From: a virus
Lineage: Duplodnaviria; Caudoviricetes
Reading direction: 5' to 3' (one strand)
IMG/VR virus record: IMGVR_UViG_3300021399_000143
Location: 11,743 to 75,742 of that record
Length of the DNA stretch: 64,000 nucleotides
Shown: one piece after another, positions 11,277 to 62,601 of the stretch
Numbering within the stretch: the first letter of the stretch is position 1
Layout: the number at the start of each line of letters is the position of its first letter
Notes under the pieces: generated by a model
The model's database searches: none
The model's input: only the letters and a program-made list of their open reading frames with translations
Told to the model about the DNA's origin: nothing
Position numbers and translations under genes: made by a program

Positions 11277-14200
11277 TCAATTGACCTCAACAACCTTTGC
11301 GTTCGCTGAATTGTCTTTCTTCTCAATTTCAGAAGTAGCCAACGTGTGCATTTCGTCCATCTTCTTCATCACAAGCTGCTCTTTCACGAATACAACTTGA
11401 TTCACAAGCGAACCCAACAACTTTTGCAATTCTGATTGTTTGTCAGAATTGTTCTCAAGCTTCAATTCAATTATTTTGTTCTTTAACTGGTCCCTGGTGG
11501 AAATAGTATAAGGATACCCATCTCCTTCCCCCTCAATGGTTATCGGTTCTTCCAATTCAAGATCATATCTATTGACTTCATCGTAAGCATCCTTTGTCAA
11601 TTCAGCTTCGCTTCCCCAATACCTGACGACCACATCCTCACGAATGGTACGTTGCTTTGCTGTGTCAAATTCGGACTTCCTGTCCATGACAAGTTCCCTG
11701 TCCTCGGTCTTTACCTCATTTGTTCCATCGTCCTTGGAATCCTTGTCGAACTTGACGACTTTCACCTTGATTATGGAAGAGAACAACTCATATAGGGTAT
11801 TCCCTTGGAGCATCTTGTCAATCTTGGTGTAGTCCTTTATGTCATCGTCGGAAACTTGGAAGAGGTTTGTGTGATTGATGTCAAATTGCTTGTCAGACAA
11901 GGCAGAATCTACGTCAAGTTGAAGCATACGCAACTTTCTCGTAATCTTGTACACTGTCTCAAAGTCGTCCCAAGAACAATCCTTGAACCAAAGTATGAGA
12001 CGTTTCATCTCGCCAACTATGTAGTCAAGAACGACAACTCTGAAGAACCAATCTGGCTTTCTCAACACCCCATGCTCGTCAAACTTCTCCAATTCCCTCA
12101 ACTTGTCCTTGAAGTACCTTTCCTTCTCTTGCGAAGTCAAGTATTGAAGCTTGTCCTTTTCGTAGGAGTTCATTATCTTCTCGTTCCAAACTTGCTGGAA
12201 TATTCTGAATCCAACATCCAACTTCACAACAGACACAACTGAATCTTGCTCGTCGAACGCCTGTTGGATGATGTCAGTGTCAATCTGTATGATTTCGTCG
12301 GATATGTCCTCGCGCTTCTTCGCAAGCGTGTTTATGCTTCTGGTCAAATGCACCTTGTCCTCAAGCAATTCCTCCCTCTTGTCAAGGTTGAATTGCGTGG
12401 AAATCTGAGACTCCACATTGGACAACTTGCGCCTCTCTGACTTCAATTGCGAATCAACCTGACGAAGTTCCCTCATCTTGGATTGGTACTTGTTCCTGAG
12501 CATCTTTCTATAGTCAGGCTTGAAGGTGGTATATAGTTCATCCTTTGGATCTTCTCTGTACCATAGGTTGTTCTCTGGGGCGTTGTACAACTTGGCAAGA
12601 AACGCGCTAATCTCCTTAACTGTCGATTGAGCCTTGCGTATGGTGGCAACTGCACTCTCAGAGTTCACTGCTTGGTCTCCAATGTCAGTCCTCAACTTGC
12701 CAAGTTTCTTGTTGTAGGTGGCTTCAGCAAACCTGTTTGTGAAATCGTCAAAGTCCTTGGAGTCCAAGATGTCTCCCATTCTCATGGTCTCAATTCCACG
12801 CTTTGACATCGCAGTAGAAGACTATTGAGAAGTTCCCTGACCATTTCCACCGCCAGTTGTCGATCTTAGTGCATTCGTTCCAGCATCAAAGGTCTTCTTC
12901 ACCAAAGGAGCCGACATGTCTATCACATTGTTGTTGTCAAGAGCACCTGGATCTCCAGCACTGGTTGCAGAATCAAATGTACCAGAATCATAACCCGTCA
13001 TCTTGACATAGTACTGGAATACTGCTGTATTCATGTTGTTGGCGATGCAACTCTTGAAAGTTATGGTAAGCTTGTATGCGTCAGGAAGCACTTCACCATT
13101 TTCTCTATGACCCAACCCTTCTGGATTCTGAATGTTTGCGGCATCGCCTCTATCAACACCAATTCTGAGGTTCGCGCCACCATCCTTCACGCCATTTCCC
13201 TTGAAGAAGTCGTTTGGTGTCATTCTATTCAAGCCAATCGGATATAGCTTGAAGTCGCCAGTACACATGAGATGACGCTGACCAGTTGGCAACCACACCT
13301 CGTACAACGCGCCAGGAAAGGCCAATATCGCCTTTTGGATGGAACGATTGTTGTGTATGATGGTATTGGCGCACATGTAGTTGTTTCGCGCCTTTACCAC
13401 ATTGTCGTTGATGAGAACGAGTTCAAAGGTAAAAGATGCCGGTTGCCCTCCATCTGGTCCCTTCCAAGATGGTGCTGGAAACAGATTGGCAACTGTTCCC
13501 TATGAACCAGAAGCTGCTGTTGCAATGTTCGCAACCATTTCTGCGCCCTGTTTAATCATATCCTTTATCTTCCCAACCAAGGAATCACGTTCTCCCCATT
13601 CTGACTCATTACTGGCCTCGTTTATCACAGTTGAACCACTCTGCACGATATATGGAAATATGTAGGTGTTTCCATATACCTTTTGCCTCAAGCAGAAGTA
13701 GAGAATATATGGAATGTCAATCACCATTGGCTTCAATGGGATGTTGGTGAATATATCCTTCACCTTGTCCATGAAGCTGTTTCCTGTGGACTTCGCGTCT
13801 CCAGCACCTTGGCTGGACTTCTCTGTAACAGTGGTATCTGCTTGCGTGTCGTCCTTTGGACTATCCTTTGCGCCCTGAACCATCCCAGCTATCTTCTTCA
13901 CGAAGTCAATCATCGTGCTTGCAGTGTTCTTGAAGAAATACTCCTTGACCACCACAAATGGCACGTTGTTCAACATCGTGTCCATCGAACGGATTGCCTC
14001 GAAAGACGATGGCGTTATTGCAATCTATGGCCAGGTCTTTTCTGCGTCGGATGGTCTGAACGAATACATCGTCCAACCACCGGTTTCAGGGCCATATGGG
14101 TTGAACAACTGCTGATCTCCATCGTGCATCATTGCTGTAAGGCCAGTCACAACCTCTGCATCTATGGCTTTCCACCCAATCGTCCTGTTCCTGTCCTTCG

Positions 14201-15986
14201 TTGGTTGAATCCCGTTGTCCTCGCTTGGAGAATCGTTTCCCATAGGCGTGGTGGTTGAGGAACTTTGCACCTACTATGACGTGTTGTTCTGCTGTTGTTG
14301 CTGCGGAGTTTGTGTTTGGGGCGTTTGGTCATCGTCAGTGGTATCATCTGGTTCTTCATCCCACCACCACTCCGGATCATCAAAATCCTCATCCTCCCAA
14401 TCCTCTTCATCTTCCCAATCTTCCCAATCTTCGTCCCAATATTCATCGTCCCACTCGTCCTCCATCTCCTCCTCTTCGTCTAACAAGTCCTCCAAATCCT
14501 CCTCTTCCTCGTCAAAGAGGTCGTCCATATCCTCTTCAGCATCGTCAATCATGTCCTCCACTTCTTCGGCTACATCATCAACGGCATCTTCTATCTCTTC
14601 ATCTGCAAGTCCAAGCATATCGGAAATGGAATCAGCCAAGCCACTTGCCATGTCAGTTGCGGCGTCCCAAGCATTGGATGCAAAGTCAGCAAGTCCCTTT
14701 GCTGCGTCTCCAGCAATAGTGGCAGCATCCTTTGCTGCCTTTCCAAGCCCATCTATGAGCGAACTTCCAATGCCAGAAACACAATCAATCATACTATTGG
14801 CGACATCACCAGCAACACCAAGCGCACTCTATGATTCAGAACCCTTACTTCCAAAGATGGAGCTTCCAATGCCCTTTGCTGTATCAAGCATCTTGTTTGC
14901 GACATCCCCGGAAGTATTGAGTATGTTGTTCGCCAAGCCATTCTTCCCGGCAAGGCCAGATTCCCCATCTTTGCCCACCGCTATGTTCTTCACCAATTTG
15001 CTGGCTTCACCTATCGCTTCAGAACCAATCTTTCCTGCTCCAGATACAGCACCAGTTACAGCATCCTTTGCTGCCCCAAATATGCCACCTATCGACAATT
15101 CACGTCTGCTTTGGATTTGCTCAAACCCAAGATTCGTGTCCTTCACCCCAAAGACCTCTATGGCAACTTCTCTCGCAAGCTCCTCGCCAACCATATCAAT
15201 AGCCTGTTGGATTGCAGATTCAAGCAAAGACTTTCTTGAAGTATCGTGTTGTTGCTTCATGTCATTGACAATATGCTCATTGTATTTCTCGTCTAGAATG
15301 TAGTAGGGGTTTGGCTGCTATTCAGTTGGTGGTGGATCATCTATCCTTGAAACCATCTCACCTACTGTTGAAAGCATATTGTCTATTGGCTCTTTGGTTA
15401 TGCCATCAAGTGTCTCTTGCGTCAAGAACCCACCATAGGTCTGCTTGGCGAACGTCCTAATCTTGGTTGCCATTGAGGTTGCTCGTTCAATCAATATGCG
15501 TTTCGTCTGAATCTTCAACTTCTGACAACTTGCAATGGAGTTTCTCTGCACACGTTCAAGTCCCTCTATGGCATGTTTAGCAGCATTGTCCAATGCGTCA
15601 AGAACCCCCTTTGAGGTCTCAAGCACTTGCTTCACCATTGGAGTAGCAGCGTCGTCAAACACCTCCCCCGCCTTCTTGGGTGTCTCCCTCCCAACAATCT
15701 GACCCAACTTTCCAACCAAACGTCCAAACTTGCTTGTCTTCTTGTCGCCAGAATGGAGCTTCCTTGTCTTTGTCTGCTTGGATATTGCTTCAACCTTCCT
15801 CGCCCCATTTCTGGCCTTTTGCATCAAGTTGAAGGCAGAACGTTCAATCCCTTGCAAGAAATCAATGTCTGATTCAGAAGACATCCTTGAAGCCAAGAGC
15901 TTCAACTCTTCTGCCCTCTTCTTCACCTCTTGGAACTTGTTGCTTTGTCCAATGTCTTTTCTCTTCGTAGGTTTCTCCATAGCCAT
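11277..15986 (-). CDS. 1569 aa recoded tail/baseplate protein with gp48-like tube-cap domain, acidic tract and C-terminal coiled coil
   Basis: six track ORFs joined in frame by 7 TAGs (15318, 14829, 14274, 14271, 14025, 13500, 12822); PASFTFELVLIND...PGALYEV...PDAYKLTITF pattern; TGA stop. Confidence 0.7.
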
Positions 15987-15987
15987 C

Positions 15988-16476
15988 TCACTTTCCTGAA
16001 ATTATGCTTTCGTGCGTCAATTTCGCGCCATCTGCTCCCTATCCAACAACATGGTATATCACCCTGACGTACAATGCATTGGAGTCTGGATCCTCGTCCT
16101 TCTTCACTGCAACGCCATCAACCTCAACCCTCGGCTCGTTGGTTTGGATTGCCCGCTTTATCTCTTCGCAAATTGCGTCTTGGTTGAACTCGTTCATCTG
16201 TTGATACATTGACAAATGGAGCTTGTGTCCAAATTCTGGACGAAGTATGCTTTCCCCAGCCCTCCACATCAGAATATTGCGAATGGAAAGTTTCACCGCC
16301 TCCACGTCATATGACATTGGAACATCATATGCCTCCAATCCACTTGAACCAGGATTGCTTGGGTCTTCCACCCTTCTTGGCATTCTGAAGCCAAGCATAT
16401 CCACGTCAGAGTAGTGGTATCTCTTCTTCAACTTTTGCTCTGTAGGAGCATCCAACTTTACTATCAAACTTCCCAT
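15988..16476 (-). CDS. gp25: baseplate wedge subunit, gp25-like
   Basis: AVKLSIRNILMWRAGESILRPEFG...EPRVEV; 1 TAG (16039) then TGA 1 nt before the next ATG. Confidence 0.85.
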
Positions 16477-16489: not shown

Positions 16490-18751
16490 TTATGCTACAG
16501 TACTTCCCTTTGCGTCTTGCTTCGTCACCATTGTTACGAAACCCTCCAATGGCGTTGGTTTCGCGCTGTTTGATGTCGTCATTCTGTTGATGAGCGTCCC
16601 AAAGTCCTTGGTTGAGTTCTGTTGTGGCGTTCCTCCACCAGCATTGAACACGCTCTTGACAACATCGCCAACCAATCCAGTGGCAGATGCGATGCCATTG
16701 GCCGAAGCATTCAATGCAGATGACATTATGGACGTGTTGCCAACGTCAGCCTTCGCTTGCATTATTTGGTTCAACGCCCCTGCAGCCTGACCTGGACTTA
16801 TTGCTCCATCTGTCATTCTGGACAACGCACCACCCATCACGTTTGCGGCATTGCCTACTGTGTTTCCACTTGCAGGAAATACTGTGGAAAGTGCCTTGTC
16901 GAAGATTCCTCCAACAGTGGTTGAATTGCCATTGGAAGCAGATGTGGCGTTTGCCACTGCACCAAATGCTGTTTGGGTCTTTCCAAGAACGTTCCCAAGC
17001 GCATTCCCTATTGTTGAAAGCAATCCACCCTCTTGCTTGCCAGATTCGCCAGATGGAGATTGTGCGGCTTGTTGCGCCTGAGCCTATGGGGAAGATGGCG
17101 TGAATGCGTCAAGTGCAGCAGATGCTATTGAGCCGGCAGCACCAACAGAACTCTTTGCCACGCTTGTGGCAACGTCCAAAGCACCACTTGCAGCATCAAC
17201 AGAAAAATCCATTCCAGATTGAGCAAGGTCTATTGCACCACCAATTGCCTTGTCCATCATGGATTCGTCAGTTCCACCACCTTCAGCGTCATCTGAAGTC
17301 CATCCTTCCTCCCCTGCCGTGGCTTCAGCTTGCTCTGACCCAACATCCATCATGTCATCTTGGATTTCTCCCTCGAAATCTGGTTCTCCATAATCCTCGT
17401 CAATTCCAGATTCCTCTTCCATAGTGTAGTCGTCAAGGTCTTCATTTGGATCACCAGAATCGCTCTCGCCATCGTCCTCCCAATCTTCAGATTCGTCTCC
17501 CCAATCTTCGTTGTCGAAGTCGTCCTCAAGCTCATCTTCCTCCATGTCGTCTGCCAAGTCCTCTTCGTCGAAGTCCATTTCGCAATCTTCTTCCTCGTCA
17601 TCCCCAAACTCGTCCTCGTACTCGTCCTCGTCATATTCTGGATCTTCATCATCCATCCACTCCTCTTCATCCTCTCCTGGCATGTCGCCTTCCTCTTGTT
17701 GCTCTATCTCATCTTCAAGGGCTTCCATATCCCCCTCGTCCGTGCGCATCTGCTCCCTCCAACGCTCCAACTCGTCCTCATATTCTGGCTATTCATCCTC
17801 TGGATTCTCCTATGGATCTGGTTGGGAACCGCTACCTGAATTCGGCGAAGATGAGAATATGAACCCTGTCCTATTCCCCAAGTTGGTTGAGCCAGAGCCA
17901 GAGCCGGCAACGTCTCCTGTCAAATCCACCAAGCACATGTCGCAAGAAAGGGTCAATGAACGCAGCAGGTTGCTCACACCTCCACCATTTATCTCGAAAG
18001 ACGCATAGTTCGTTGGCTTGACTCCAATGTACTTGTAGGAATAGTAGGTGTATTTAGCGTCCTTTCTACTCTATTGTGCGTTTGGATTCTCCCTATATCT
18101 CATCCTTGGACGTTGAACCTCAAGAGTTGCCATTGGATATGGCGTTGCCCATTCAGTGTAAACCTTGTCGGGTCTATACCACCAAGGTGAGTTTATGTCC
18201 TTCATCCAAGGATAGAAAAGTGAATCCAAGATTGAGAACTCAGTATCCACCATCTAAAGCGTTATCGTCTATTGCCCATCCGAAGCATAGGGGGAGAACG
18301 AACCAGCAGTGGTCTTTCCAAACAAGGTATCTATCGTCTCGGCATTCGCTGGCTTTATCTCTGGCAAAGATGCCTACCTGACGAATGGGGTCAAGTCAAC
18401 ACAGTTGTCAGGAAGCGAGGTGTCCTACGTTCCACCTTGAATGCCACCCTTCCCCTTGAATGGTGAATTCAATTTGGCGTATTGTATAGCTGGAGGACTA
18501 TTCTTTTCCTTGCCTTTATCCAGCTTTGACACATACCCATCCAGAAGATAAGGACACTATATGAGATTGCCAACGGCATTGTGAAACCAGAGGAACACGA
18601 AATACTCAGGATCCGTGATGATGGTATAGTTTGGCACAGTAGGTTGATGGAACTTGTCAAGCCAACGTTCCAACCCCTGATGTGCGTCGTTACCCATTGG
18701 ATCCTGAAATGGGTTCTTGGTCAGTCTATCCTGTAAGAATGCTTTCTCCAT
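16490..18751 (-). CDS. 753 aa recoded tail tube initiator-like protein (gp19/gp54 fold) with acidic and Ala/Gly-rich tail
   Basis: 9 in-frame TAGs join the fragments; ITL(Q)MVDTEFSILDSLFYPWM...YKYIGVKPTNY tube-fold pattern; TAA stop. Confidence 0.7.
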
Positions 18752-19381: not shown

Positions 19382-21772
19382 TCAATCTTCCTTGCGCTTG
19401 ATTACAAGGTTCTGGCTCCACTCCTTGCCATCCAACCCAAGCGCATCAAGCATGGTTGGGAAATCATAGGCAAAGGCATCGTTGATGCTTGTCAGATTCT
19501 TGATTTCCATATCCTCCAACATCATCATGAGAGTGTCATCATCAATCAATTCGGATTCCAGAAGATCTCTGAAGTTCTCTTGACCCTGACCCCAAAGGAG
19601 TTCAAGCAATTTCCAGGGATCAGTAATCTCCTGCTCGATTGTCATCTCGCAAATTGGCTTCTTGTTCTCGCCAAAGTCAAGTATCTTGGTCTCACCATCC
19701 TGCTTGTACTTCTTCTCGCCATCCTTCACCTCATCAGGTGGAGTCTCGTCCTTCTCCTGAACCAACTCAACCTCGTCCTTGGCATATTCACCAGGATCCC
19801 TGTCGGCGAACGTCACAGTGTATGGAAGTCCCTTCTTTTCCTTGTCCACAGATGAAATCTCACCAACCCATCCCTTTGAGGCAAGTCCTTTCCCAACAAC
19901 CTTCACCTTGTCGCCAACCTTGAGCAAGTCATCGTCAGATTCAAGTGCCACTGGCTTCTCTGGATCAACGAAAGAACCATCCTTCTTGAACTGCTCGACA
20001 TCGAGATCAAGGGCAGAAACAATCCACCAGAAATCCCGGATAGCGTCGTTCAACTCCACCTTCGTTGGGGATTCCTCTCCAAACCGAGAGTCAATCGCGT
20101 CCATTATCTCCTCTTCAGTGCGAACGTGAGAGTTGATGAGGTTTGTGAGGTTCTTGTTCGCGTCAGGGTCGTCAAGGAGGTCAAGCACGTCCCAAACGTC
20201 GTTTGCGTCAACCATGACCGTGGCTTCCTTCATAGTAACCTGCTGACCAATCTCCTTCAAACCATCGTCAGACTCAAGCGCAAATGGAACAAACTTCAGG
20301 TCTTCAGCTCTAACAATGCCAACAACCTCCTGTCCAAACTTCGCAAAGTCATCCTTGGTCTGAATGTGCTTCCTCTCAAACGCCCAAGAATTGTCGCTCT
20401 TGTCGAAGAGGATATACTGATCATACCCATCCCTCTTTGCAGTTTTCTTGGCGTTTGCAATCACAATCTTCTGGCCGGCCTCTCCAAGAGTATCATCATC
20501 TTCGGATTCCATATATTCCTCTGAATCAGACTCACCAACTTCCATTCCAATCATATCATCCATGGAAACCCAATCAGAGTCCCTTCTCTCGTTTGTTATG
20601 TTATCTTTCATAATGCTATTGTCATTCATGTCGTATTTTCCACAAACAACCTTGAACATGGCTCCATCAGAGTCACCAAGCCTCGTTTGATCGTTGTACA
20701 CATCCACCTTGCCATCGAAGTCATCTCCATTCCACATCTGAACAGTGATGTCTTCATCCACTGGAACCACATCGAAGTCCCATCCTGACTTTGAAACCAC
20801 TTCACCAACCACTTCCTTGGCCACATCAACAATGTCGGCGACAGAAGTCGCTGGCTCATTCCCCAATTGCCCCGTATTCTTCACGAACACATCGAATTCC
20901 ACTATGTCCATGTCCTTCACGGCGCGCCAATCGTACACCTCCATTTCATCGGTATTGGTACTCCCAACCAACTTGACAAGTTCCTCTTTCGTCAACGCTT
21001 TCGCTTTCATGCTTGTATCCTCCTCATTTCCACTTTCGCAATATGGATTCACGAAGTTCACAATGTCCTTCACCTTGTTGGCAATCTCCCCAATATGCTG
21101 AACAGCAAACTCAAAGTCCTTGTTCATCTCGTCCTCGTCTGCCTTGTCAGCTTCCTCGTAGTCTTCGTTGCATTTCCTGACCTTATCCATATAGTATTCA
21201 TTTACCCACACAGACTTTCCACCTTCCGGGGGAAACAGCTCAAATTCGTCCAAATTGACGCTTCCAACACGCCAGTCCCTATGACGCTCACCCGTGTCAG
21301 GATCATCCCAATCAACAATGTCCCCCCTTCCAAACCTAATGGAATTGTTTGGATTCCGGCTTTCAGAAACAACATCTCCCTCTTCAGATGAATCATCCCC
21401 ACTCTTCATTATCTCAGCCATCAAATCGTCAATCTTTCCATTGTATTCAGATAATCTGTCCTTTGGCATCTTTCCATCAGTCAACTTGCCAAGCACCTCA
21501 AAGAACGCCCTCCACCAATTATAGAGCTTTTTCTTGACATCTTGGTTCTCGTCCTTGGATGCGCAAAGAACCTGATTGAATGTTTCATCCGGAGGAACAC
21601 CAATCGTCTGCCCCAACGAGTTCAGGGCATCCATCAACTTGAACTGAAAGCCCCTCGGCGTGTCCCGCAATGCGTCAAACATCTATGCAAACTCAAGAGA
21701 ATTGTCCAATGTCTTGAGTTGAAGTATGCTCTTTATCGAGCCATCTATGGTTTCGGTGAATTTCGTCTTCAT
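19382..21772 (-). CDS. 796 aa acidic multi-domain late protein, putative internal head polyprotein
   Basis: true start 21772 (MKTKFTE-T), single TAG at codon 30; repeated ALESDD/xES junctions; SH3/KOW-like modules (GRGDIVDW, KVGDKVKV). Confidence 0.7.
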
Positions 21773-30129: not shown

Positions 30130-30140
30130 GTCCTCCTTCG

Positions 30141-30998: not shown

Positions 30999-31033
30999 TG
31001 TCTTATTTCCTTCCAATTTGTTGTGTCATGTTC

Positions 31034-33809: not shown

Positions 33810-33832
33810 AAGCATTGATAGGGAGATGATTG

Positions 33833-40441: not shown

Positions 40442-40470
40442 GACTTTCCTCTATATAGTTTGTCTATTGC

Positions 40471-40501
40471 TATTTACCATTCCATCATTAAGTTGTATAA
40501 T
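40471..40501. promoter_or_regulatory. overlapping divergent promoters (late on minus, sigma70 on plus)
   Basis: AATGGTAAATA (minus) shares bases with TTTACC-17-TATAAT (plus). Confidence 0.7.
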
Positions 40502-41784: not shown

Positions 41785-44700
41785 TTGGCAAATACAACCA
41801 TATATGACAGTGGAGACACTTTGATCAACCGTGGATTGTCAATGCGCACAATCAACAACGAATTGACAAATCTGTTCCAGAGATATTCCATGACCCTCAA
41901 CAAGATTATGGGGGACGAGTTGATAGGGAACTCCCAAATACGCCAATTCTATACTGACGAAGATGGGGTGTTCAAGGAATATTCCAAGGGTCAGATAGCG
42001 TTCAAGAACGACATAGACAATCTCAGATATCTACTCGACCACAAGACAACTGTATCCAATCTCATTGGTGTTGATGTCCAAACCATAAACAATGACAAAC
42101 GAGAACTTGCGAAGGTAAAGGACTATCTGAACAGATTGAAAAGTGTTTGTGAGTTGGGAAACGTCCATGACCCAATTCAACTGTACATATCCAAGCACGA
42201 CAACAACATTGGCAGTCTTGACCTGAACGTTGATTGGGTTGATTACATTCTAACATAGAAATGGATAGACAAGCTCGCAACCAAGGCCAATGGAGGAGAA
42301 TATTCCCCATCCGACTACAGAATCGAATATTTGTCGGACTTGATTGAAGGAATCCTCACTGACCATATAATAGACTACCACAAGAAACTGGAGGCGTTCG
42401 ACCCATCTGACTTCTTGAGCCAACCGAAGATGCCAATCAAGAATCCTGAAACAGGGAAAACCGTTGTGATTGACCTTCCATTGGAGGATGCAATGAACCA
42501 ATTGAACTCATTTGGGAAGCTTGACTATGGGTTCTATGAGATATTCAAGCCAATTGGTGGTGGCAAGGGGAAGCACATCAAGGTCAAGATGTCCACGGAT
42601 GGATATGTTGACATATCTGGCGTGGTTGGATTGTCGGATTGCGACCGCTGGGAATGGGAATATGGCTCGGAGGCATATCTGCGCTCCTTGAACACAGGAA
42701 ACCAAAGATACTTGCTCCAACTGGACATGCCATTGAACGATGGCAGCAGCGTTCTTTGGTGGAGGCCAGACAGTCCATAGAAGTTGAATCCCCAACCAGG
42801 TGATGAAGACCAAGCAACGATTAGAAACTTCAAGGACTACGAGGTTGAACGTTTCTTGCGTTGGTATGGAAACGATCACATTCCAAGGATTGACGAGGAC
42901 ACCTTGGAGAAATGCACAGTATGCTCATCCCCAAACCTCACTGACGATACTGAATCAGACAACTTCCACACTGACGCCAGAAACATAGGCGAAGCGAGAT
43001 TGGACTTGACCAGAATCAACATAGACGAGTCAACGTCACAATCGTTGCTCTATCTCTATCCAAAGGCGACAATCTCGGTAAGAACCTATTACCATGACGA
43101 AGAGAACAAGACATATAGATTCCCAAAGACAGTGGCGAAAGAGGGTGAAGTATTGGATGACCCAAGCAAGATACACCAATACCTTGAATTCATCGTCACA
43201 GGGAACAGACAAACAAGCAACGTGGCGTTTGACGTGAAGGGATGGATTGGAACAGACATACAAGAGAAGAACCACTACTTGCACACGTTGGGTCAAATGA
43301 CAGAAGAGATGGAAAGACTCTTCAACTACATGTTGTTCTTTGAGGTAAGCGAAGTCATCGTTCCTGGAATCACGACCATTTGGGACAACTTGAACTCCCA
43401 CTTCTGGGAAAAAGCAGTTGATGCAAAGGTAAAAATCAACGAAGATTGGATTCCAAGAAACTGGATTTACTTGGAGGACAAGCTTCAAGAACTTCTCAAA
43501 TCCCCAACCATAATAGACATCTTGCGATTCAGACAATTGGACTTTGACACCATAATCCTCAACAACGTTTCTCAATTGAACATCAGAAGAGATTGCTTCT
43601 TGAAGAAACTCGATGCGGACAGCGATGCATTCATTGACGAATATTGCCAAGGGGACAGAAATGACTTGAACGATATGAAAGCCCTTGTGAACAACAAAAT
43701 GGTATACATAGAGGATTTGTGGAATTACATAACCAACTATAAGGACAAACCATATGAGGAGCTTTCAGAATACTATCAAGGAATAACCCAACTTACTGAT
43801 GTGCAAAAGGCAAATCTCATAACTGCCCCACTCGAAAAGATGTATGGAAAGAAGTTGCCAACGTCAGAATATCAAGCAACTCGAATGAAGTTCTCTTCTG
43901 ATGGAGAATGGATTACATACAACATAGACGGAACATTGGACAAGAAGACCCTTGAGAATCTTGAATTGGTATACAAACCTAAAGAAGAGGGAGAAACAGA
44001 ACAAACAAGGGACTATCTGTTGTGGATGCGAAAGCCATATGCCATTGAGATTGGAACTGATGTCACGGAAATTGGGGATTATGTGTTTGCCAAATGCACA
44101 TCTTTGGTCAGTGTGACGATACCAAAATCCATTGAAAGCATTGGCAAGGAAATATTCAGGGAATGTCCCAATCTTTCAAGCATAACTTTCAGTGGCAGGA
44201 ATTTCGCAAACATAAGGGATATCAAGGATGCAAATGAAGAAAAACAGTATCCTTGGGGACTTGATTTCAATAAAGATGATGAAGATGAAGATGAAAATGA
44301 CGACTATAAATACATCTTCAACAAGGGGGAGTTCTCTGATGTCAGAGTGGAAACCTTGCGTGAAAGGATAACCACTTTCAACAACCTAATCGTAAGGCTC
44401 CCTGTTGGTCCAAGACAACACAACTGCATAGCGTCCAAGCGCATATTCCAGGATTGGAAAGCGTTTGTGGATGGAGCAAAGAAACACTTGATTGAAAATC
44501 AGGAATTGTTTGAGGGAAATGATGTTTCGGAATTGGGTACAGACGGGAAGGAACACAAATACAAGGAACTTTACATAGACGAAGCCAAGACGATCCCATT
44601 GATTGACTATTCATATATCACAAGAGACGAATAGAGTGGAATTCCAAGTGCCGATAGATGGGATTATTGGACAGAAGAGGACTTCAAGTGGCCTCAATGA
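41785..44700 (+). CDS. 971 aa recoded late protein with a BspA-type LRR module
   Basis: three track ORFs joined by TAGs 42256, 42778, 44632; IEIGTDVTEIGDYVFAKCTSLVSVTIPKSIESIG; TGA stop. Confidence 0.7.
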
Positions 44701-45937: not shown

Positions 45938-47203
45938 TCAAGCGATAATCAGAAGTCTGTCGTTGGAGCGAGTCACCGCAGTATAGAGCCACTTGCTTCT
46001 GTAATCCTCGTCCCAATATCCACAACTTTCCTCAAATAGCATCACATTTCCCCATTCAGAGCCTTGTGCCTTGTGGACAGTGAGACAGTAGCCAAAGTCA
46101 AAGGAGTCGAAATAGAGTTTCTTCTTGCCAATCTTGCGCAATACTTTCCTCTCGGCTATGGTCAAGTTGGACTTGAGTTTCATCAACTCCCTTACAGTTA
46201 TGAACTCCTTGCCATCAGACGCATACTTCATTTCCCCAAAGTGATGCTTGTTCACGAAACCTGAGTAGCCAAATCCATCATCAACATCCACTGACATGGA
46301 ATAGACACCCTCAAGCCCCTCGCCCCCATATGCGTTCGCATCGTTGATTGAAGTTATCTTTCCAAGCATTCCATTGTAGATTGGCTCAGCAAGCGCACGG
46401 TTGTTTCGCAAGCACACAACCCTGTCACCCACCCTCGGTATCTTGTCCTCTATGTCAGAGACCACGCCATAGTTGAGCCTGATGAGCTGATTGACATCCA
46501 CCCTCGTATTGTTGGTTCCGCAAAGACAAACGCCATTTGAGAAGTCAGAAAGATGGTTGAGAATGAAGTCATTTACCAATGGGTCGGATTCCTTCACCTT
46601 CGCCACCTTGTCGTCAAATTGCTTGAAGGGAATCTCATCGCCATTTCTCGCCATTATGGACAAGTCAAGCAAAGCGGAGTTCTGGCCAAACCTATGAACC
46701 TCTTCAAGTCTAATCACAGGATTGGACATGAGATTGAAGTCGTCTGACGAGATTGGTGGAAGCTGACCGTGGTCTCCAACGAACAGAATTGGAATCCCAT
46801 ACATACGAAGGTCTTGGAACAACTCTTGATTCACCATTGAAGCCTCGTCCACTATAATGAGGTTGTAGTCAAGATATGGAACTCGCTCAAAGACGTTCAG
46901 CTTGGTTTCTGGGTCTCTTCTGCATCTATAGCAAAGCCCGTGGATTGTTCCTATGTAGTCCCCCAATTGCGTGGCGTTTGCAGTCAAGAGCTTGTCCTTC
47001 ATCACGCCAGAAGCCTTGCCTGTATATGCGCAGAACGCCACACGCCATCTCTTTGGCAGGTTCTTGCGAACCTCTGCAATGAGGGATGTCTTTCCCGTTC
47101 CGGCATATCCACCAAGAGTCAGAAAGGAAGCCCGTGTTGGAGACTTAATCCAATCCAGAATAGTTTGCTTTGCGTCAAGTTGGTCTTTGCTCAATGTTAT
47201 CAT
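45938..47203 (-). CDS. SF1B helicase, Dda/RecD-like
   Basis: GYAGTGKT, IIVDEASM, VGDHGQLPP, EVHR, TVHKAQGSEW, YTAVTR; no TAG. Confidence 0.92.
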   Translation of the reverse strand: MITLSKDQLDAKQTILDWIKSPTRASFLTLGGYAGTGKTSLIAEVRKNLPKRWRVAFCAYTGKASGVMKDKLLTANATQLGDYIGTIHGLCYRCRRDPETKLNVFERVPYLDYNLIIVDEASMVNQELFQDLRMYGIPILFVGDHGQLPPISSDDFNLMSNPVIRLEEVHRFGQNSALLDLSIMARNGDEIPFKQFDDKVAKVKESDPLVNDFILNHLSDFSNGVCLCGTNNTRVDVNQLIRLNYGVVSDIEDKIPRVGDRVVCLRNNRALAEPIYNGMLGKITSINDANAYGGEGLEGVYSMSVDVDDGFGYSGFVNKHHFGEMKYASDGKEFITVRELMKLKSNLTIAERKVLRKIGKKKLYFDSFDFGYCLTVHKAQGSEWGNVMLFEESCGYWDEDYRSKWLYTAVTRSNDRLLIIA

Positions 47204-49491: not shown

Positions 49492-49716
49492 TCACTTCTG
49501 AGGCGCAACTACCCTATACCAAAGAAGCGAATTGGTCTTGCAGTGGAAATCCACACCAACCTTTTGGGCAATTTCCGCAGTCTTTTCGGTAAGCCTTGTG
49601 GTGGTTACGCGATCAACTCCAGCTATTACGCACACCAAGGCAAGCGCAACCGTAAGCACGATGTTCATGCGCAAGTTGTCCTTCTTCAGTTTCTTGATTT
49701 CGTCTTCAATGTTCAT
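49492..49716 (-). CDS. small single-TM protein
   Basis: AAGGAG SD; NIVLTVALALVCVIAGV. Confidence 0.65.
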   Translation of the reverse strand: MNIEDEIKKLKKDNLRMNIVLTVALALVCVIAGVDRVTTTRLTEKTAEIAQKVGVDFHCKTNSLLWYRVVAPQK

Positions 49717-51631
49717 TGTTTGTTTCTCCTTCGTCCTAATCCCGCACTATGCGTGAAATGTTATCCTGCTTCTGAACCACCATCATCTGGGTCTCTGGCA
49801 TGTCCTTGAACATGGTCTCGACCTCTCCACGGTGGGAGATGATGGAGATGTTCGTGTTCTCCTTCTGAGAAAGTTGAAGCAATATGCCCAGCAACTTCTG
49901 AATCGACACACTGTCCAACGCCCTGTCAACAACCTCGTCTATAATCATTATGTTCATGCAGACGTTGAACCTGGAGATGAGGAACTTTCTAAACGCCAAT
50001 TGGGACGATATGATGAGCTTCATCTGCTCTCCAAGCGAAAGGTTGGGGAAATCCAACTCTCCACCACTGGACTGAATCTCGTAGTCGTTCATGTCGCTTG
50101 TGAGATTGCAGGTGAAATTGACGCAAAGCTCCGAAAGATTGGCGTTTATCATTGCGTTGATTGAGGATACAACCCGTGATATGATGTTCTTCTTGATTGC
50201 GTCAGGTGAGACTATCTCAGAACCAACCTTGAGCAAGCAAAGGTGCATTGCCTCGTCCTTAAGTTGCTTCTCCACTTCCTCAATGTCCCTCAACGTCTGC
50301 TTATACACGTCATATGAAGGTATCTTGTCCTCGTTCTCCATTGAATCCATCAAGTCAGCAACCTTGCGCTCCAAGTCCTTTATGGACTTCAACAATTGGG
50401 ACTTCTGGAACTGAAGGTTGCGTTCCTCAACTTGCGTCTCAGAAAGCTCGCCAATCTTCGCCAATTCCTCTGACTTGAGCTTGTCGTCATAGACCTTCAC
50501 CTTGGCTAGTTGCTGACTACAATTCGCAATCTTCTCGTTCTCTTGGTCTATTTGGGAGTTCAACTTCTCTATCTCGTCCCTATACACATCCAACGAATAG
50601 AACTTGTTGACAACTTGCTTGCAATCGTCGCAAATCATTCCGAGGACTTCCTTGTGCTTGTTCAATTCCCTCTGATGGTGCGAGATTGTCGTGTTGTAGT
50701 TGTTTATCTCAATCTTCGCATTGGTCATCACGTCATTGCACTTGGAAATGACTTCATCAAGCTTCATCTTGTTCTCGCGTATCTTCGCCAACGCCTCCTC
50801 TATGACCTTCCTCTGCTCCTCGATCCCCTTGAACTTTGGACCGAAGCCTTGCACCTTCTCTTCAAGAACGGACTTCTCCTTGTTCGTCTCTGCAATCTGG
50901 TCGTTGACGCTGGCCTTGTACCTCTCAATGCTTTCCTCGCAAACCTCCTTGGTCTTGGCATACTTCATCTGATTCACCTTGAGGTTCTGAAGCACCATGT
51001 TCTTGGACTTCATGTCGTCGCCCATCATCTTGTACATCTTGGAATAGATGGAAGTGTCGAACAAAGTCTCCACGAAATCCCTCTTCTGCCCGGCATTCAA
51101 CTTGAAGAAGTTGTACTTGTCGTCAACAGAAAGCATGACCAGGCGCTGATACATCTCGAAGTTCATGAACAGAACATTGTCCTCAATGTACTTCTGTGTA
51201 TTCGCTGACGAAGACTTGGATATGTCCTTCCAATCACCATCTTTCAAGATAAGCAATTGAAGCACAACTGTAGAAGAACCCTTCTGAATCCCACGAATTA
51301 TCTTCCAATGCTTCACGTCAGTATTTGATATGATTGAATCAACCTCAACGGACACAAACATCTTCCAATTGCCCCTCAATTCGTCCGCATACTTGTTCTT
51401 CAAGTTGGAATTGTGTATCTTGCCATACAACTGACCAAAGAGCGAATACATGAGGGCATGAGACAAAGCTGACTTTCCTGAGCCATTTGAGGTGTTGCCC
51501 AAAGTGGTCTCAGTGTCCTTGTTCTTACCCTTGATTAGCACAAGCCTGTTCGTATTGTCAAAATCCCATTCCTCATCCTGAAACGACAGGAAGTTGTGTA
51601 TGTCAATCTTCTTTACCTTTACTCTGACCAT
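49706..51631 (-). CDS. gp46: recombination endonuclease ATPase subunit (gp46/SbcC/Rad50)
   Basis: GSGKS Walker A, CDDC zinc hook, LSLGE signature, IIDEV Walker B; only TAG is at 49736, 10 codons before TGA. Confidence 0.92.
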
Positions 51632-54374: not shown

Positions 54375-55964
54375 TTATGGCAACAATTGTGCTGCTCCTG
54401 TCTTTATTGCCTGTTTCATCGCATAACATGAATTGGCAAATATTTTGGCCTTCAATATTCCGTGTTGAGCATCACTAGAGTTCAATCTTGCCATCTCCTC
54501 TTTCATATTCAATATGTTTCCATCTGAATCCAGCGGGTTTCCATTGGCATCGAAGTGCTGTGATATTCCATCCATATTGACCCAATATCCACCATCTCCG
54601 GACTTGGACATAAGTCCGTGATCTCCACCCCAATCAAATCCAGCAGAACCATTACTGGCTATCATTTTTGGATCATCCTTGAACATCTTGGACAAGGTTG
54701 CTTGCTTGTCGGAATCCATTGAATTGAACCACTCACGATTGCCATTCTAGTCCATCAGGTCATCCCCACCTCCAGAGGAATCATCTCCATCCGATGAGGA
54801 ATCACCATCATCTACATTGGTGTCGTCTGCATCAACCGAATCAGCCCCAACATCAACATCCCCCGAATCCACATCTCCTGCATCCACATCGACATCACCA
54901 TCTCCACCAATTGCCATTGCTGCAGCAGTTCCAGCAACTCCGGCAACTGTTCCGAGGATACCACCTTTCGCCCCTCCAACGAGCTTGCAAGCCTGACGGA
55001 TGGTCGGTCCAATGAGGAACTTCGCACCTACTGCTGGACCTGCCCACATGAACGCTATCGCTGCTATGAGAATGATGGTTATCATCTTCCAATGCTTCTT
55101 GAGGAATTGGAGAATCTTGCCCTTTGCATCCCCACCCTTGGCGTTGTCAGCCTTGTTTCCAGTATTGGCGTTACCTTCCTTGTTGTTCCCCTGTTGTTTG
55201 ACATCCTGCTTTGGTGGGTTCTTGAAGTACTTCTCAATCATGGCAGGAATTGCGTCCTTTTTCTTCTTCAGCTTCGCCGCGATTATCTTGATGTTCTCTG
55301 GCTTCAGAGCCTGCTTCTTGTTCCAACCATTCTGCTGTATTATCTGCTGAAGCAAAGATGGCTTCTTTTGCGTCTGATTCCCCTGCTTTTGGTTTGCCTA
55401 TTGCTTTGCGCCAGTATTCTTCTTCTTCGGGTCTTGCTTCTTGCCATTTGAGCCAGCGTTCTTCTTGTCCCCCTTTGCGTTGTCTCCTCCTTCTCCATCG
55501 TTTCCTGCGTTCTTGAATGCGTTCCATCCTGCCTTCAACTTGTCCATGAAACCTTCGTCATAGAGCGATTCCACGATATAGTCTTGGTTCTGCTCCAAGT
55601 TCTCCAAATCCTCTCCAATGGATTCAAGATACAAGGCAAAAGACTCGTTCGCCTGTTGGTTGTCCATGTTCTGAACAAGACCCTTCAAGGAGTTCCAAGC
55701 ATCCACGAACCACTTTTCCTTGCAATTTGACAACTTGGCATCTATTCTCTTGGCATACTTCGCCATGAAGTCCTTTATCTTCTCTGGAGAGGGACATACC
55801 TTCTGCATTCCGCTCTTTATCTTGTTTAGAATGGAATTACCAAATCCCTCTGAATACAAATCGTAGTCTACCAGAACATCTTTGGCTTCATCAAATGCCT
55901 CGTTGAACTGCTGTTTGCAATATTCGTCTTTCACAACATTATTTTCCTCTAATTTAGTCCACAT
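54375..55964 (-). CDS. 529 aa recoded late protein, putative internal head protein with a TM-like segment
   Basis: 2 TAGs in Gln-rich context; EGFMDKLKAGW and repeated ES/EA junctions. Confidence 0.65.
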
Positions 55965-55980
55965 GGATATAATCTCTCCT

Positions 55981-57051
55981 TTAATCAAAGTTAAGTTCCT
56001 GTATCGCATCCTCAATGTCGATATCACCAATATCAATGGCTTGATATAGCGATGCAGCAAGCCATACAGAATCCAGAACATTCAACCTCTGAAGGAACTT
56101 GAATGTGGAGTTAGCAGTAAGCCATTCCTTGTTCGTTCTCATGTCCTCGGCCTGTTCCTTGTCCTGTGGCTTCAACCCTGCCCTTCTTCTGACCTATACC
56201 ATCTCCTCCTTCAAGTCAGCCACGACCTTCATGCTGTCCAATATCTCGTCTTTGGTTTCTTCCAATCTCCTTCCAACAATTGACATCAACTGCTCGTTGG
56301 AATAGACATCCCTGTTGGACGCCTGCTCCAATATGGCATTGTGCTTGTAGAGATTCTTGTTCAGGTCGAACAACGCCTCTTGCGCTTTCTTGCCAAACTC
56401 AAAAGCCTCCTCCCATGAACTTTCATATTCGTCATATGGGTCGAACTCCATATCCACCAATTGAGGTCCAGAAAGCCACTCGTCGTTCATCAAGTCGTAG
56501 CAACCGCAAGAACCCATGTCAGCATAGATGTTGTGCTGGAAGTAGAACTCCAATGGATGCGTCTTGGAATCCCCAACCATCAAGTTGGACTCGTCCCCAA
56601 GCACCTGCTCCTGCGTCTTCTTGCGAAGGTTGTTCAACTTCTCGGCAACATCCTCTGGCAAATCCACTTGGATATGGACATCCACATCGCCATCGTCAGT
56701 ATATTGGTTGGAGCAAATGGAACCAACGACATTCACGCCCTTTGCCTCAACATGGTACTTGGCAAGAAGCTTATCCACAAGTTCAAGTGCCTTCTGCTTT
56801 ATCTCTGGCTTGATTATCCACTTCCCTTCCTCCACCTCGTCCCATATCTCAGGGCAAAGACCCTCAGAAACAGGATAGTCTATGCTCGATTCCTTCTTTA
56901 TGGATGCTTTGTCTTGCAAAGACTCAACAACGCCACCATGTATCGCAGATGGCATCAAGTTGCCAGCATCAGAGGCCATGCCACCAGTTGATGTGGCAAG
57001 TGGATTTGGACATATCAAAATCTGTCCATTGCTCTATTTCTTCTTTTCCAT
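55981..57051 (-). CDS. Pol-beta superfamily nucleotidyltransferase, 356 aa
   Basis: VVGSICSNQY..DGDVDVHI (GS + DxD), HPLEFYF; TAGs at codon 6 and 56194. Confidence 0.75.
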
Positions 57052-57053: not shown

Positions 57054-59030
57054 TCAGAACTCCATCTTCGTAATGCAATTTACCACACCACCTGCTGGCC
57101 AACTCTCCAATGTGATTGCAATTGGCTTTTTCCAGAACTCCCACCATTTTCTTGGACGTGCATGGCCAGGGGACTTTTCATCAGCAACAAGCTTGTCAAA
57201 CTTCTTCACTGGGCGTGAAATCTTGACTGGGGCAGTTCCGGTAAGCACAATTCCAACCATAGTGCAATTCTTGGATGGTTCATCGCCATTTAGAACCAAT
57301 CCTGGTTTGGTCGTAACCACAGCATTGGCAACGCCATTTCTTGAAAGCGTCACCTCCTTCTCCCCACCGAACATGACCAATGTGCCGGGCTCATATTGCC
57401 TGTCAGACTCCTTGTATTCTGCCAAGTCTGCCCAACGGGAACGCAATGATGTTCCGTTTATCTCCTTGTCGAATGTGACTTGACCCAAGAACCTGGCGTT
57501 ATGGTAGAATCTGCACTCACCTATGAATGACGTATGGGTGTAGAACCAAGCGCGTTCGCCATAGTGGTATTCGTTTCCACGCACCTTCTGAACGCCATTT
57601 ATCCAAGGTTCTTTTGCACGAACCAAGGTTTGGGTCTTGCAACAACCATCCATTTGGTTCAAGCTCTCATAATCCTCATATACATGTCCTTGCGTTGAAG
57701 GTTCATCTTCCGCCAAGAAACGTTCATGAACACCTTCCAAATCATCAGTCCCATTCGTAACCAATGGATGAATGTCCACCTCCGCCCACTTGTCCTGATT
57801 GGCGAGCTTCCAGTTTATCAATGCCTTGATTGCATTGAACAACCACGCCAAGCTCATCTTCCTGGACACAAAGCCATTCTGAGAACCATATGCCGTAGCA
57901 CCATCACCAAGCCACTCAGAGACCTCAAGGTATGACCACATTATGTTGTGGCGAAGTGTATCTACATCAAGGTCCGTATCGTCGTCAATACCCCGTTCCC
58001 CATTGGAAGCCATTGTATGTACATCATTCGTCGCATCATATTCCTATGGCATTTCATCCCTACGCAATTCAGACTTCTGATATCCCTTGAATTTATTATA
58101 ATCAAAAGACCTGTCCATACTGCGTTTGACGTTCTCAGCTGCCTCTCCCCACAAATCCATCTGCCACTTTGGATTTGGATTGTACCCAGTTCCTGTAGTA
58201 TGCTCTCCAATAGGACACCAATCCTGATAGAAATACGCATCATCGACATTGTTGAGTCCATAAGACCATATCAACTACTTCTGGTAGATTTCATCCAAAT
58301 TGGATATTCTCTGCTGGGTTATGGTTTGTTGGGGATACAAGTATTCACCAACATGCTTATTAAAATATGTGGTTTCACCAGACAAGGACAATTTTATTGT
58401 GCTGTCAGAAAAGTCTCTAACATAGTCAATACCATCATCCAACGTGAATCTGTTAAATATTGGTGTTGTCTTTGCTTGCCCAGATTCAGACCAATTGACT
58501 CGTCTTGTGGTTGCATCATATTGAATTGTGTATTGAATGTTGTCAAGGGTAAACTTGTTGCTGATTATACCCACAGATTGCTCTCGACCAGAGGCATCAT
58601 TCCACGTAACCTACGAATCCCCAATGACATATTCTGTCTTTATAGTCTATTCTCCATTGACAGCATTCTCAATACTTCTATCCAAATAGAATGTCTTGTA
58701 TCTAGGTGCGCTTTTTGATATACCACTCGAATTTGTCCAGCTAACCTATGACCCATCCGAAGAAATTATATAGGAAATATCGTCAATGATGAACTTGCCA
58801 GTTCCCGGCTCTATGGGTTTGGCTTCAAATAAAGCAACTATGCGTCCTTTGAGCTTGTTCTTCTTTTTATCTTCAGTATCAAGAGTTTTAATTTCTTCCT
58901 CTGAAACCGGGGGAACAAGTCTCCTCAAAGCATCGTCATACAACTCTGACATCTCGTCATGTTGGTTTATGAACCTGCGAATCTGCTCTTCTGGTCCCCA
59001 AAATGGTATCTCTGAAATTCTGTTTATCAT
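57054..59030 (-). CDS. recoded tail-associated protein with C-terminal Peptidase_G2/IMC-like domain
   Basis: 5 TAGs join four track ORFs; WADLAEY..YEPGTLVMFGGEKEVT..VLTGTAPVKI; start 59030 or 59069. Confidence 0.7.
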
Positions 59031-59059
59031 GGCTACATTGCTCGTTGTTGTGCTATTTC

Positions 59060-59092
59060 TATTTACCATTTGAGGAAAGATTATTGTAAATA
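59060..59092. promoter_or_regulatory. back-to-back late promoters
   Basis: AATGGTAAATA (minus, 59060-59070) and TATTGTAAATA (plus, 59082-59092). Confidence 0.7.
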
Positions 59093-59123
59093 ACAATGTA
59101 CGACCTAATATGGGGAACAAACA

Positions 59124-60406: not shown

Positions 60407-60435
60407 GTCATGCAATATACTATATATTGGGGGGA

Positions 60436-60591: not shown

Positions 60592-60612
60592 GTTTCAATT
60601 ATACCACTTTCG

Positions 60613-62601
60613 TCAGAACTCCGTAAGGACATTATATGCTTCCTCTCCATCGTCCCATTCCTCGCCATTTGCGAAGTCGAAGGTCTCGTTTACGGTGAAG
60701 AATTCACGGTTGCTTCCACGTCCCCATTGCCTGTTTCCATAGAACAACTCATCGTCCGGGATGTCTCTTTCAGTGGCAGATAACCTCACAACCTTGTGTT
60801 CCTCCAGATTGCCAAGTTGGGAAGCTATTCCCTTGTTCGCTTCAAGGTTCAAGGTCTCTTCCAAGAGACTTTGGTCGAAGGGACTTGTGTATATGACCTT
60901 CTCTGGGAGAACTCGATCCATCTTCGTCTTGAACGCCTTTACCACGGAATAGTGTTGGGTTATGACGTCAGCGAACAACAAGTACATTCCCCATATCCAA
61001 GTAAGCATATAGTCGTCGTGGCATTTGTCCTTTGCAGCGAACGTTATGGAGTTTGAGGTGTTCTTCCTCACAAACGTTCCCATTTCATTGACAAGCAATT
61101 CGTCGGGGATTGAGATGTCTATTTCCTCTGTTGTGATAAGCTCGTTGAGGAACATGCAAGCCTCAAGTTTGGTCTTGTTCTTGGACTTCACGCCATAGGT
61201 TATCTCGCCATATTTCCCTGTTGGAGAGATAGCCTGCTCGTAGAACATTCTGTCCTGGGGATAGTGGTAGGTGTCCAACATAATATCCACGAATCCAGAG
61301 CCAACGCCATTGTTCTCCACGATGAATGGTGGAAACGCATAGAGCTTCAAGAACTCGTATGTGGCATATCCAAAATCCACCAAAGTTGCCTTGGAGCAGG
61401 ACATACGAGCCACCAAGGAAATGTGCTTGACGTCAGTGACATCCCAAATGTTGGAGACAGACGAGTCGTTTCCTGTTCCCTCAGAAATATCCCCAGATGA
61501 TGCATATGTCCTTGATGGGTCAAATGGCTTCCAGAAGTTTGCGGTTATCTCCTTGTCCGGGTTCTTTGATAGGTTCAATTGAGCTGGCTTTGGATAGTTC
61601 TTCAAGTTCATTCTGAAATGCTCTATGAAGTCAGAAGGAACAAGCGAAGCGTCACCACTGGACTTGAACTCGCACTCAAACTCCTGCATCCACCTGTTGA
61701 TGCCAATCGTAGCAATCTGCTGACGTTTCCATTCCTCGTCTCTCCCTGGGACATCATACCAAAGGAAACGAAACGCTTTCCAATTCTCGTCTGACTCAAC
61801 ATTGGGGTCAGTTGCCTACTACCAAGTATCAAAGAAGAAATTGTCAGAAGTTCCATTTGGGGTGGAAACCATTATTGCCTTTGAGTCTTTTGACGACGAC
61901 AGAATAGGAAACACAGAAGCCATGAACTCGTCTGCAACATGCTTTGGAATGAATGCGGCCTCATCAAGCACGAGCAAATTACTTGAGAAACCACGACAGC
62001 CACTTGAACCAGTAGCAAAGCAACGTATGATGGAATTGTTCTCAAATTCAATGCACTTCTTGTTATATGTGGTAACGCCAATCTTTATTGCTGATGGACA
62101 ATATTCATATGCCAGACGAATACGGTCCATGATTTCAATGGCAATGTCAAGTTTGTTACCACAAATCATCACTCGCTTGTCTGGATGATACATAGCATAC
62201 CAAAGTATGAATACTGTGTATATCGTCGTTTTTCCAACCTACCTACTGGCACACACAAGTGCCCGATTGTTCTCCTATATGAACTTCAACAATTCGGCTT
62301 GCTTTGGGTATGGGTCAAGAGTCACCAATCCATCTTTAAGAGAAACAATTTTGAAGTAATTTCGACAGAAATACAATATGTCCTTCTTGCATCTTCTGAT
62401 TTCTTTGGCGCGTCTCTTGAACTCCTCTGGAGTCAGAATCTCCTTCTCACCGGCTTTCTTGATTGAAGCAAGCTCTTCTGTTCCATTGAGCTTTTGCTTC
62501 AACTATGCAGACGCAAGTTGCGGACCCTACTTCTCCTTGGTTTGTCCCAGGTCAAGGTCAGCAAACTTGTCAATCTCCACTTTGCCTATATCTTTGCTCA
62601 T
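60613..62601 (-). CDS. terL: terminase large subunit (T4 gp17-like), 662 aa
   Basis: SR(TAG=Q)VGKTT Walker A, LVLDEAAFI Walker B, VSTPNG, QEFECEF, ENNGVG nuclease motif; 6 TAGs. Confidence 0.95.

Follow-up and report, generated by a model that had tools for sequence, protein, structure and literature searches.

The stretch of DNA analysed here, hereafter called the window, comprises 64,000 nucleotides (nt; positions 11,743 to 75,742) of the IMG/VR virus record IMGVR_UViG_3300021399_000143, and its conspicuous feature is the presence of TAG codons within the reading frames of genes for packaging, tail and late transcription proteins. The window is part of a contig of 75.7 kilobases (kb), i.e. 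~18% of the genome (CheckV) of a T4-like huge phage of ~420 kb from the gut or rumen. Three complete relatives with direct terminal repeats are available in IMG/VR, G001 (414 kb), G002 (434 kb) and G003 (418 kb), which are collinear with the contig at 65-88% nucleotide identity, G001 being the closest. Under the standard code (translation table 11) the region between 11277 and 62610 appears as a mosaic of fragments of open reading frames (ORFs), whereas long ORFs that end at TAA or TGA emerge if TAG is read as sense. The initial annotation, which proposed that TAG encodes Gln (genetic code 15), had counted about 60 such TAGs in 17 genes; the pattern holds, although the exact count is 65 in-frame TAGs in 19 called genes.

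The gene for the large terminase, which is of the T4 gp17 type (60613..62607, minus strand, 664 amino acids (aa) after fusion of its fragments), contains six TAGs at codons 27, 35, 111, 123, 263 and 264, and its matches to the Pfam family Terminase_6N (1.7e-17) and to phrog_36964 (2e-52) both extend over TAG sites. Codon 123 is the TAG at 62239-62241 in the context ALVCASR-TAG-VGKT, where it takes the place of the Walker A Gln. In the baseplate module a giant fused ORF (11277..15986, minus strand, 1569 aa), collinear and conserved in G001-G003, has seven TAGs including a TAG-TAG pair (14271-14276) that comes after QQQQQNNTS. It adjoins the gene for a gp25-like baseplate wedge protein (15988..16476, minus strand, 162 aa; GPW_gp25 3.2e-16, phrog_261 1.7e-22), the only TAG of which, codon 146, corresponds to sense codons in the relatives. 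Another fused ORF of the module (16490..18751, minus strand, 753 aa) has nine TAGs, e.g. at 17084-17086 in the context P-TAG-AQAQQAA, and the relatives have Q or TAG at several of these sites. Two genes code for tail-tube-like proteins: the first (33004..33741, plus strand, 245 aa; phrog_45 4.3e-14) has a TAG at codon 21, which is CAG in G001 and G003 and TAG in G002, and the second (33830..35089, plus strand, 419 aa; phrog_45 2.4e-06) has five TAGs. They are followed by the gene for a gp55-like late sigma factor (35528..36178, plus strand, 216 aa; phrog_234 'late sigma transcription factor', 7.7e-22) with TAGs at codons 26 and 30.

The remaining TAG-bearing genes include a caspase-like protease of the Peptidase_C14 family (30141..31016, minus strand, 291 aa), in which TAG codon 210 falls within the domain match (PF00656, 3.7e-17, residues 46-278), and a BspA-type leucine-rich-repeat protein (fused ORF 41785..44700, plus strand, 971 aa, three TAGs; Pfam LRR_5 2e-12). 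Six further ORFs, all on the minus strand, carry no assigned function: 19382..21772 (796 aa, high codon score) with one TAG at codon 30, which is TAG in G001 and CAG in G002 and G003; 32034..32855 (273 aa, four TAGs); the fast-evolving fused ORF 37682..39322 (546 aa), which has a low codon score, nine TAGs and no TAA or TGA; 39341..40480 (379 aa, four TAGs, low codon score); 54375..56081 (568 aa) with two TAGs, one of them at 55398-55400 in the context KQ-TAG-ANQKQ; and the fused ORF 57054..59120 (688 aa, five TAGs), codon 282 of which is CAA in all three relatives. Thus, the individual TAGs cited in the initial annotation are found at their positions and in their contexts, the read-through proteins are uninterrupted, and annotation with table 11 would indeed break the terminase, tail and baseplate, and gp55-like genes.

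In a gene call scored by codon usage, which was trained on long table-11 ORFs and treated TAG as neutral, all 81 genes called on the contig end in TGA (55) or TAA (26). Specificity of the pattern for TAG is evident from a bridge test, which counts stops that lie in one frame between two open, coding-like stretches with a minimum length of 60 codons each: 16 of 937 TAGs but only 4 of 3561 TGAs and none of 905 TAAs were bridging stops, and none were found in 20 shuffles. TAG bridging exceeds chance, and TAA and TGA are not read through but remain stops. These two procedures replaced greedy ORF coverage under alternative codes, which does not discriminate, since dropping any stop lengthens ORFs. 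Re-calling the genes of G001 with TAG as Gln resulted in fewer and longer genes (400 calls, mean 304 aa) as compared to table 11 (532 calls, mean 220 aa).

The identity of the encoded residue was addressed by alignment. Among 120 homologues of the terminase, 90 of the 96 distant ones have Q at the column of the Walker A TAG, and codons 263 and 264 correspond to Q in 20/20 and 19/20 close homologues, respectively. Additionally, the TAGs of the contig were masked as X and aligned to the three relatives by tblastn, with substitution frequencies taken from the same alignments and with spurious antisense ORFs, the "TAGs" of which are conserved CTA codons on the other strand, removed before the likelihood test. 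Opposite the contig TAGs we find 151 codons of the relatives, i.e. 125 sense codons, 14 TAGs, 12 gaps and no TAA or TGA. Q (35), E (20), N (10) and K (9) are the most frequent sense residues, Tyr and Leu being found at only 2 and 4 of the 125, and Gln is the maximum-likelihood residue, 65 nats ahead of Glu and 88 nats ahead of Lys. Where the local identity is at least 0.6, Q is found at 27 of 45 sites (60%), compared with a self-conservation of Gln of 51%. Thus, the TAG columns align preferentially with Gln. The reciprocal test gives the same picture: opposite the in-frame TAGs of the relatives (1.8-2.5 per 1000 aligned codons) the contig has Q in 33 cases, TAG in 14 and E in 10. TAG positions coincide in only 14 of the 151 observations, so that TAG and CAR (CAA or CAG) codons replace one another as synonymous codons do. 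TAG is usually followed by a purine, resembling the context of CAG; an enrichment of CAG over CAA opposite the contig TAGs is not significant (p = 0.08). On the basis of the Walker A column, codons 263 and 264, the masked-TAG likelihood and the reciprocal test we conclude that UAG is very probably a Gln sense codon in a subset of the genes of this phage.

That only a subset is concerned follows from the distribution of core TAGs, for which the first 35 and the last 25 codons of each gene were left out as ambiguous. The 58 core TAGs are confined to 13 genes, where they make up 16% of CAA, CAG and TAG, and the other 68 genes have none, as compared to 48 TAG-free genes expected under a uniform share of TAG (heterogeneity chi-square over genes of at least 150 aa: p = 2e-6). 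All six annotated DNA-metabolism/ATPase genes lack TAG, the probability of which is 6e-4. The large TAG-free genes encode a Dda-like helicase (45938..47203, minus strand; phrog_325 3.3e-88), an SbcC-like protein, RNase H-like and PD-(D/E)XK exonucleases, an N6 methylase and an AAA ATPase; besides the helicase and the SbcC-like gene, the TAG-free DNA-metabolism set lies at 3425-4249, 7865-9439, 31108-32037 and 62771-63943. The SbcC-like gene (gp46-type, early; 49706..51631, minus strand; phrog_77 5.7e-65) not only has no internal TAG but ends at one; each of the four genomes has this terminal TAG at the conserved C-terminus, and a TAA or TGA follows 0-9 codons further on as a backup. Thus, in one early gene at least, TAG has retained its function as a terminator. 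As to the relatives, their genes for the T4-type major capsid protein and DNA polymerase B have no TAG, the portal gene has one each in G001 and G002, and core TAGs are present in ~80 of the 400 genes called in G001, the modules concerned being dispersed throughout the genome. TAG use is concentrated in genes for particle building, packaging and late transcription, and the DNA-replication genes are spared. Consequently, of the proposed genetic code 15 the assignment of TAG to Gln stands, whereas a uniform code does not, as only about one fifth of the genes use TAG and the SbcC-like gene ends at it.

Several observations weigh against this reading. The three relatives do not count as independent observations, a large number of TAG sites are situated in regions of poor conservation with a mixture of aligned residues, and the terms "early" and "late" are taken from gene function only. 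Furthermore, ARAGORN, Rfam and a custom covariance model all failed to detect a tRNA-CUA on the contig, the only tRNA of which is tRNA-Arg(UCU), and searches for a PCRF (RF1/RF2) or GlnRS-family (tRNA-synt_1c) gene found none in any of the four genomes, so that of the tRNA-CUA, GlnRS and RF2 which the initial annotation suggested looking for, none was found on the contig. That a suppressor is missing from the contig is uninformative, given that ~82% of the genome lies outside it. The same three methods, however, fail to detect a tRNA-CUA in the complete genome of G001, which has 28 tRNAs and a transfer-messenger RNA (tmRNA) and an equally high frequency of in-frame TAGs (2.5 per 1000 aligned codons).

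The other two relatives do encode a tRNA-CUA, but the two suppressors have unrelated sequences and lie at different loci. The tRNA-CUA of G003 (L054:18611-18687, minus strand, corresponding to G003:268611-268687) is an ordinary tRNA of 77 nt (Rfam, 33 bits) in an insertion of ~2 kb that the syntenic site of G001 does not have. It is not clearly related in sequence to the tRNA-Gln genes of the phages. Its 17-nt CUA anticodon arm recurs in 33 IMG/VR stretches, and many of the contigs sharing it have a size of ~50-170 kb. The anticodon arm of the suppressor is present in the huge phages G004 and G005 as well, but these were rejected as members of the clade, their terminases being only 26-31% identical.

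The tRNA-CUA of G002 (L171:1355-1444, minus strand, corresponding to G002:410487-410576) has a length of 90 nt and belongs to a family with at least 12 distinct sequences in IMG/VR phage contigs. Its apparent variable arm consists of a 3-bp helix, which is paired in 100% of the sequences and exhibits compensatory changes, and a 7-nt loop with an invariant UCUGA, i.e. a copy of the anticodon loop of tRNA-Gln(CUG). The best match of the covariance model of this family in G001 is an ordinary tRNA-Gln(UUG), with the 17-nt CUA arm skipped in the alignment, and if this arm is left out, the identity of the G002 tRNA to the tRNA-Gln(UUG) of G001 and G002 is 68-70%. The G002 tRNA thus consists of the body of a tRNA-Gln into which a CUA arm is inserted, a design that would be compatible with charging with Gln by the host GlnRS.

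Some other RNA candidates in these genomes deserve mention. Low-threshold ARAGORN calls of 'tRNA-Pyl(cta)' at positions 30062-30159 of the window and 344895-344991 of G001 were dismissed, as neither has an Rfam tRNA match at E = 10, and the setting that produces them makes 286 calls in G001. A tmRNA just upstream of the window (L077:10300-11400) is not supported, either: ARAGORN and Rfam find none, the best score being 9.8 bits for alpha_tmRNA at a cut-off of 50. In G001 and G003 the tmRNA lies inside tRNA clusters and encodes the tags GNDYRMAA and GNDYSMAA. G001 (L041:6854-6927) and G002 (L042:7585-7681) also have tRNA-like genes with anticodon loops of 6 or 8 nt that ARAGORN cannot assign; one of the pair has a CAU-containing loop, the other, of 97 nt, a Gln-like UUG loop and a long extra arm. 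Finally, in G003 a tRNA-Gly(UCC) at L043:10348-10524 carries an insert of ~96 nt in the region of the anticodon loop, according to an ARAGORN intron call and an Rfam tRNA score of 31.9 bits over 177 nt.

How UAG is decoded where a suppressor gene is lacking leads to the most serious alternative, namely that UAG is sense without any dedicated suppressor, the host RF1 being disabled or out-competed and a near-cognate tRNA-Gln(CUG/UUG) of host or phage inserting Gln; in a variant of this scenario a co-infecting phage or the host would supply the suppressor. It could explain why G001 has TAGs in the Walker A motif of the terminase and in the portal and sigma genes although it has no detectable tRNA-CUA. 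It would also fit the differences between the relatives, i.e. unrelated suppressors at different loci, that of G003 in an insertion absent from G001, from which it follows that the suppressor gene is dispensable or exchangeable in the clade. Suppressor tRNAs are, moreover, found in only 35-40% of recoded phages (Borges et al., 10.1101/2021.08.26.457843) and in ~61% of recoded jumbo phage genomes (PMC13037316). Nevertheless, no RF1-targeting factor was identified, and an unusual tRNA could have evaded detection. Genes with 7-9 TAGs require efficient decoding, and near-cognate readthrough is usually inefficient. We therefore regard decoding without a dedicated suppressor as unlikely.

A residue other than Gln, e.g. 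Glu, Lys, Tyr or Leu, might be considered, since the positions aligned with TAG often have E, K, N or D as well and the G002-type suppressor with its ~90 nt superficially resembles a class II (Leu/Ser/Tyr) tRNA. However, Gln leads Glu and Lys by a wide likelihood margin, Tyr and Leu are rare at these columns, an invariant Gln of the Walker A motif is encoded by TAG, and the "long arm" of the G002-type tRNA copies a Gln anticodon loop on a tRNA-Gln body, which makes another amino acid very improbable. We consider it just as improbable that TAG mainly acts as stop and that a small fraction of readthrough serves regulatory attenuation instead of reassignment. The termination of the SbcC-like gene by TAG and the avoidance of TAG in the major capsid gene of all three relatives might be taken in favour of such a mechanism, but essential genes have up to nine TAGs, so that a low readthrough per site would yield practically no full-length terminase or baseplate protein, and the 16% share of TAG among the Gln codons of TAG-bearing genes together with its free turnover with CAR speaks against it as well. 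An artefact, i.e. errors of assembly or sequencing, or the decay of the genes to pseudogenes, has nothing specific in its favour apart from the contig being a metagenomic fragment. The three independently assembled relatives have in-frame TAGs in the same genes and sometimes at the same codon, the TAG of the terminase Walker A motif is found in G001 and G003 as well, and the frames are interrupted by TAG alone, but never by TAA or TGA. As the same pattern is seen in independent assemblies, assembly error and pseudogenisation are excluded, and we assign a negligible probability to this explanation.

Reassignment of UAG to Gln in a subset of genes has a particular consequence for the gp55-like late sigma factor. 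The next possible start after TAG codons 26 and 30 is the TTG at codon 48, which already lies within the conserved core. Full-length late sigma factor therefore needs suppression here, with two UAG readthroughs in the present phage and one in G001, where codon 26 is TAG, whereas codons 26 and 30 are CAG in G002 and G003. This suggests that the code switch may lie upstream of late transcription. Presumably, early genes are translated under the standard code of the host, and later on the ribosomes would be enabled to read the TAG-bearing genes by a tRNA(CUA) that suppresses amber codons and receives its Gln from the host GlnRS. As this set includes the gene for the gp55-like sigma factor, the code switch would gate late transcription, too. 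The gene for the suppressor may lie in the ~80% of the genome that is missing from the assembly, two of the three complete relatives having such a gene, or the suppressor may be supplied by other means, which would be required for the closest relative, G001. The full scheme, i.e. an amber switch above late transcription combined with a decoder that is interchangeable or dispensable in the clade, is put forward tentatively and is rather doubtful at present. If G001-like members, perhaps including the present phage, truly had no suppressor, UAG would be decoded by a mechanism not yet described, e.g. by neutralisation of RF1 in combination with a near-cognate tRNA-Gln or by the suppressor of a co-infecting phage. 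The amber-bearing gp55 gene and sister genomes with different or no suppressors provide a natural comparison for the proposal that recoding sets the timing of the lytic programme.

The recoding itself is real, but of an already described type. Reassignment of UAG has been reported for huge animal-associated phages, with the residue left unresolved there (PMC7162821), TAG-to-Gln recoding for Lak and crAss-like phages (10.1101/356790, PMC7886860), and the assignment to Gln has been confirmed by proteomics (PMC9523058). A bias towards late genes and a code-switch model have been published for the code-15 gut phages of Borges et al. (10.1101/2021.08.26.457843), especially for the Lak, Jade, Sapphire and Agate clades, which share with the present phage recoded late modules scattered over a large genome, TAG as Gln, the bias to structural genes, replication genes in the standard code, a suppressor in some members only and a host GlnRS that presumably charges it. 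None of the clade sizes given there (Lak 562 kb, large phages 210, 201 and 154 kb, small phages 34, 34 and 22 kb) fits ~420 kb, and the present lineage further differs by its GC content of ~46-47%, its T4-type core and the lack of a detectable RF2. A survey from 2026 describes code 15 in hallmark genes of jumbo phages, including the T4-type portal (Portal_GP20) that is split under table 11 (PMC13037316), but is general in scope and contains neither the present lineage, nor an amber-bearing gp55, nor differences in suppressors between close relatives. The residual novelty thus lies in how the closest relative, and possibly the present phage, reads UAG.

The parallel to Lak and crAss-like phages drawn in the initial annotation is valid for the type of recoding, but the phage itself belongs to neither group. 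Lak megaphages (10.1101/356790; PMC8346664) are likewise huge phages of the animal gut with recoded TAG and many tRNAs, but their genomes have ~540-660 kb, as compared to 414, 418 and 434 kb in the complete relatives, and their replication genes are mostly recoded, too, whereas here the genes for the helicase, the SbcC-like protein, the exonucleases and the methylase as well as the DNA_pol_B of the relatives are free of TAG. TAG-recoded crAss-like phages (PMC9523058, PMC7886860) exhibit the same reassignment and the same late-gene bias. Membership in the Crassvirales was nevertheless rejected, as the terminase is of T4 type, gp25 baseplate and tail-tube genes typical of a contractile tail are present, the relatives encode Portal_T4 and Gp23, and the genome is about four times larger (~420 kb instead of ~100 kb).

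Affiliation with T4-like phages is indicated by Terminase_6N, GPW_gp25 and phrog_234 (gp55-like late sigma factor) in the window, and the annotated phage terminases nearest to that of the window, at 31-34% identity, are those of T4-like myoviruses. Portal_T4 and Gp23 (T4-type portal and major capsid proteins) are found in G001, G002 and G003, which also encode DNA polymerase B (DNA_pol_B), gp25 and gp55 and have a GC content of ~46-47%. Of the features looked for in a T4-like phage, only the standard genetic code is absent, as the tests of TAG show. The lineage thus extends TAG-to-Gln recoding to a T4-like clade of ~420 kb, T4 being the best understood model of phage gene timing. For annotation this means that pipelines using the standard code fragment the terminase, baseplate, tail-tube and late-sigma genes of the lineage. 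A functional equivalent is provided by amber mutants of T4 grown on supE hosts (tRNA-Gln CUA), where late genes containing UAG are completed only with a Gln-inserting suppressor. Unlike in these mutants, the ambers found here are natural, numerous, conserved in the clade and confined to one class of genes.

Despite the T4-type core genes, the genomes of the lineage have a size of 414-434 kb, carry terminal repeats and encode 28-36 tRNAs; cultured T4-like phages are far smaller. Three large ORFs with high codon scores stand out in the window, 19382-21772 (minus strand), in which codon 30 is the only TAG, and the TAG-free ORFs 47330-49408 and 59124-60347 (both plus strand). Searches of PHROGs, Pfam and PDB sequences gave no match for any of them, nor did the ESM Atlas for the first two, and whether they belong to the early or to the structural class bears on the partition of TAG use between early and late genes. 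In some relatives (L078 and L079, 458-4905), the terminase gene is broken near the Walker A region into an N-terminal piece, an ORF for a DUF559 endonuclease and a C-terminal piece of 634 aa with a different N-terminus, an arrangement which suggests an intron or intein with a homing endonuclease.

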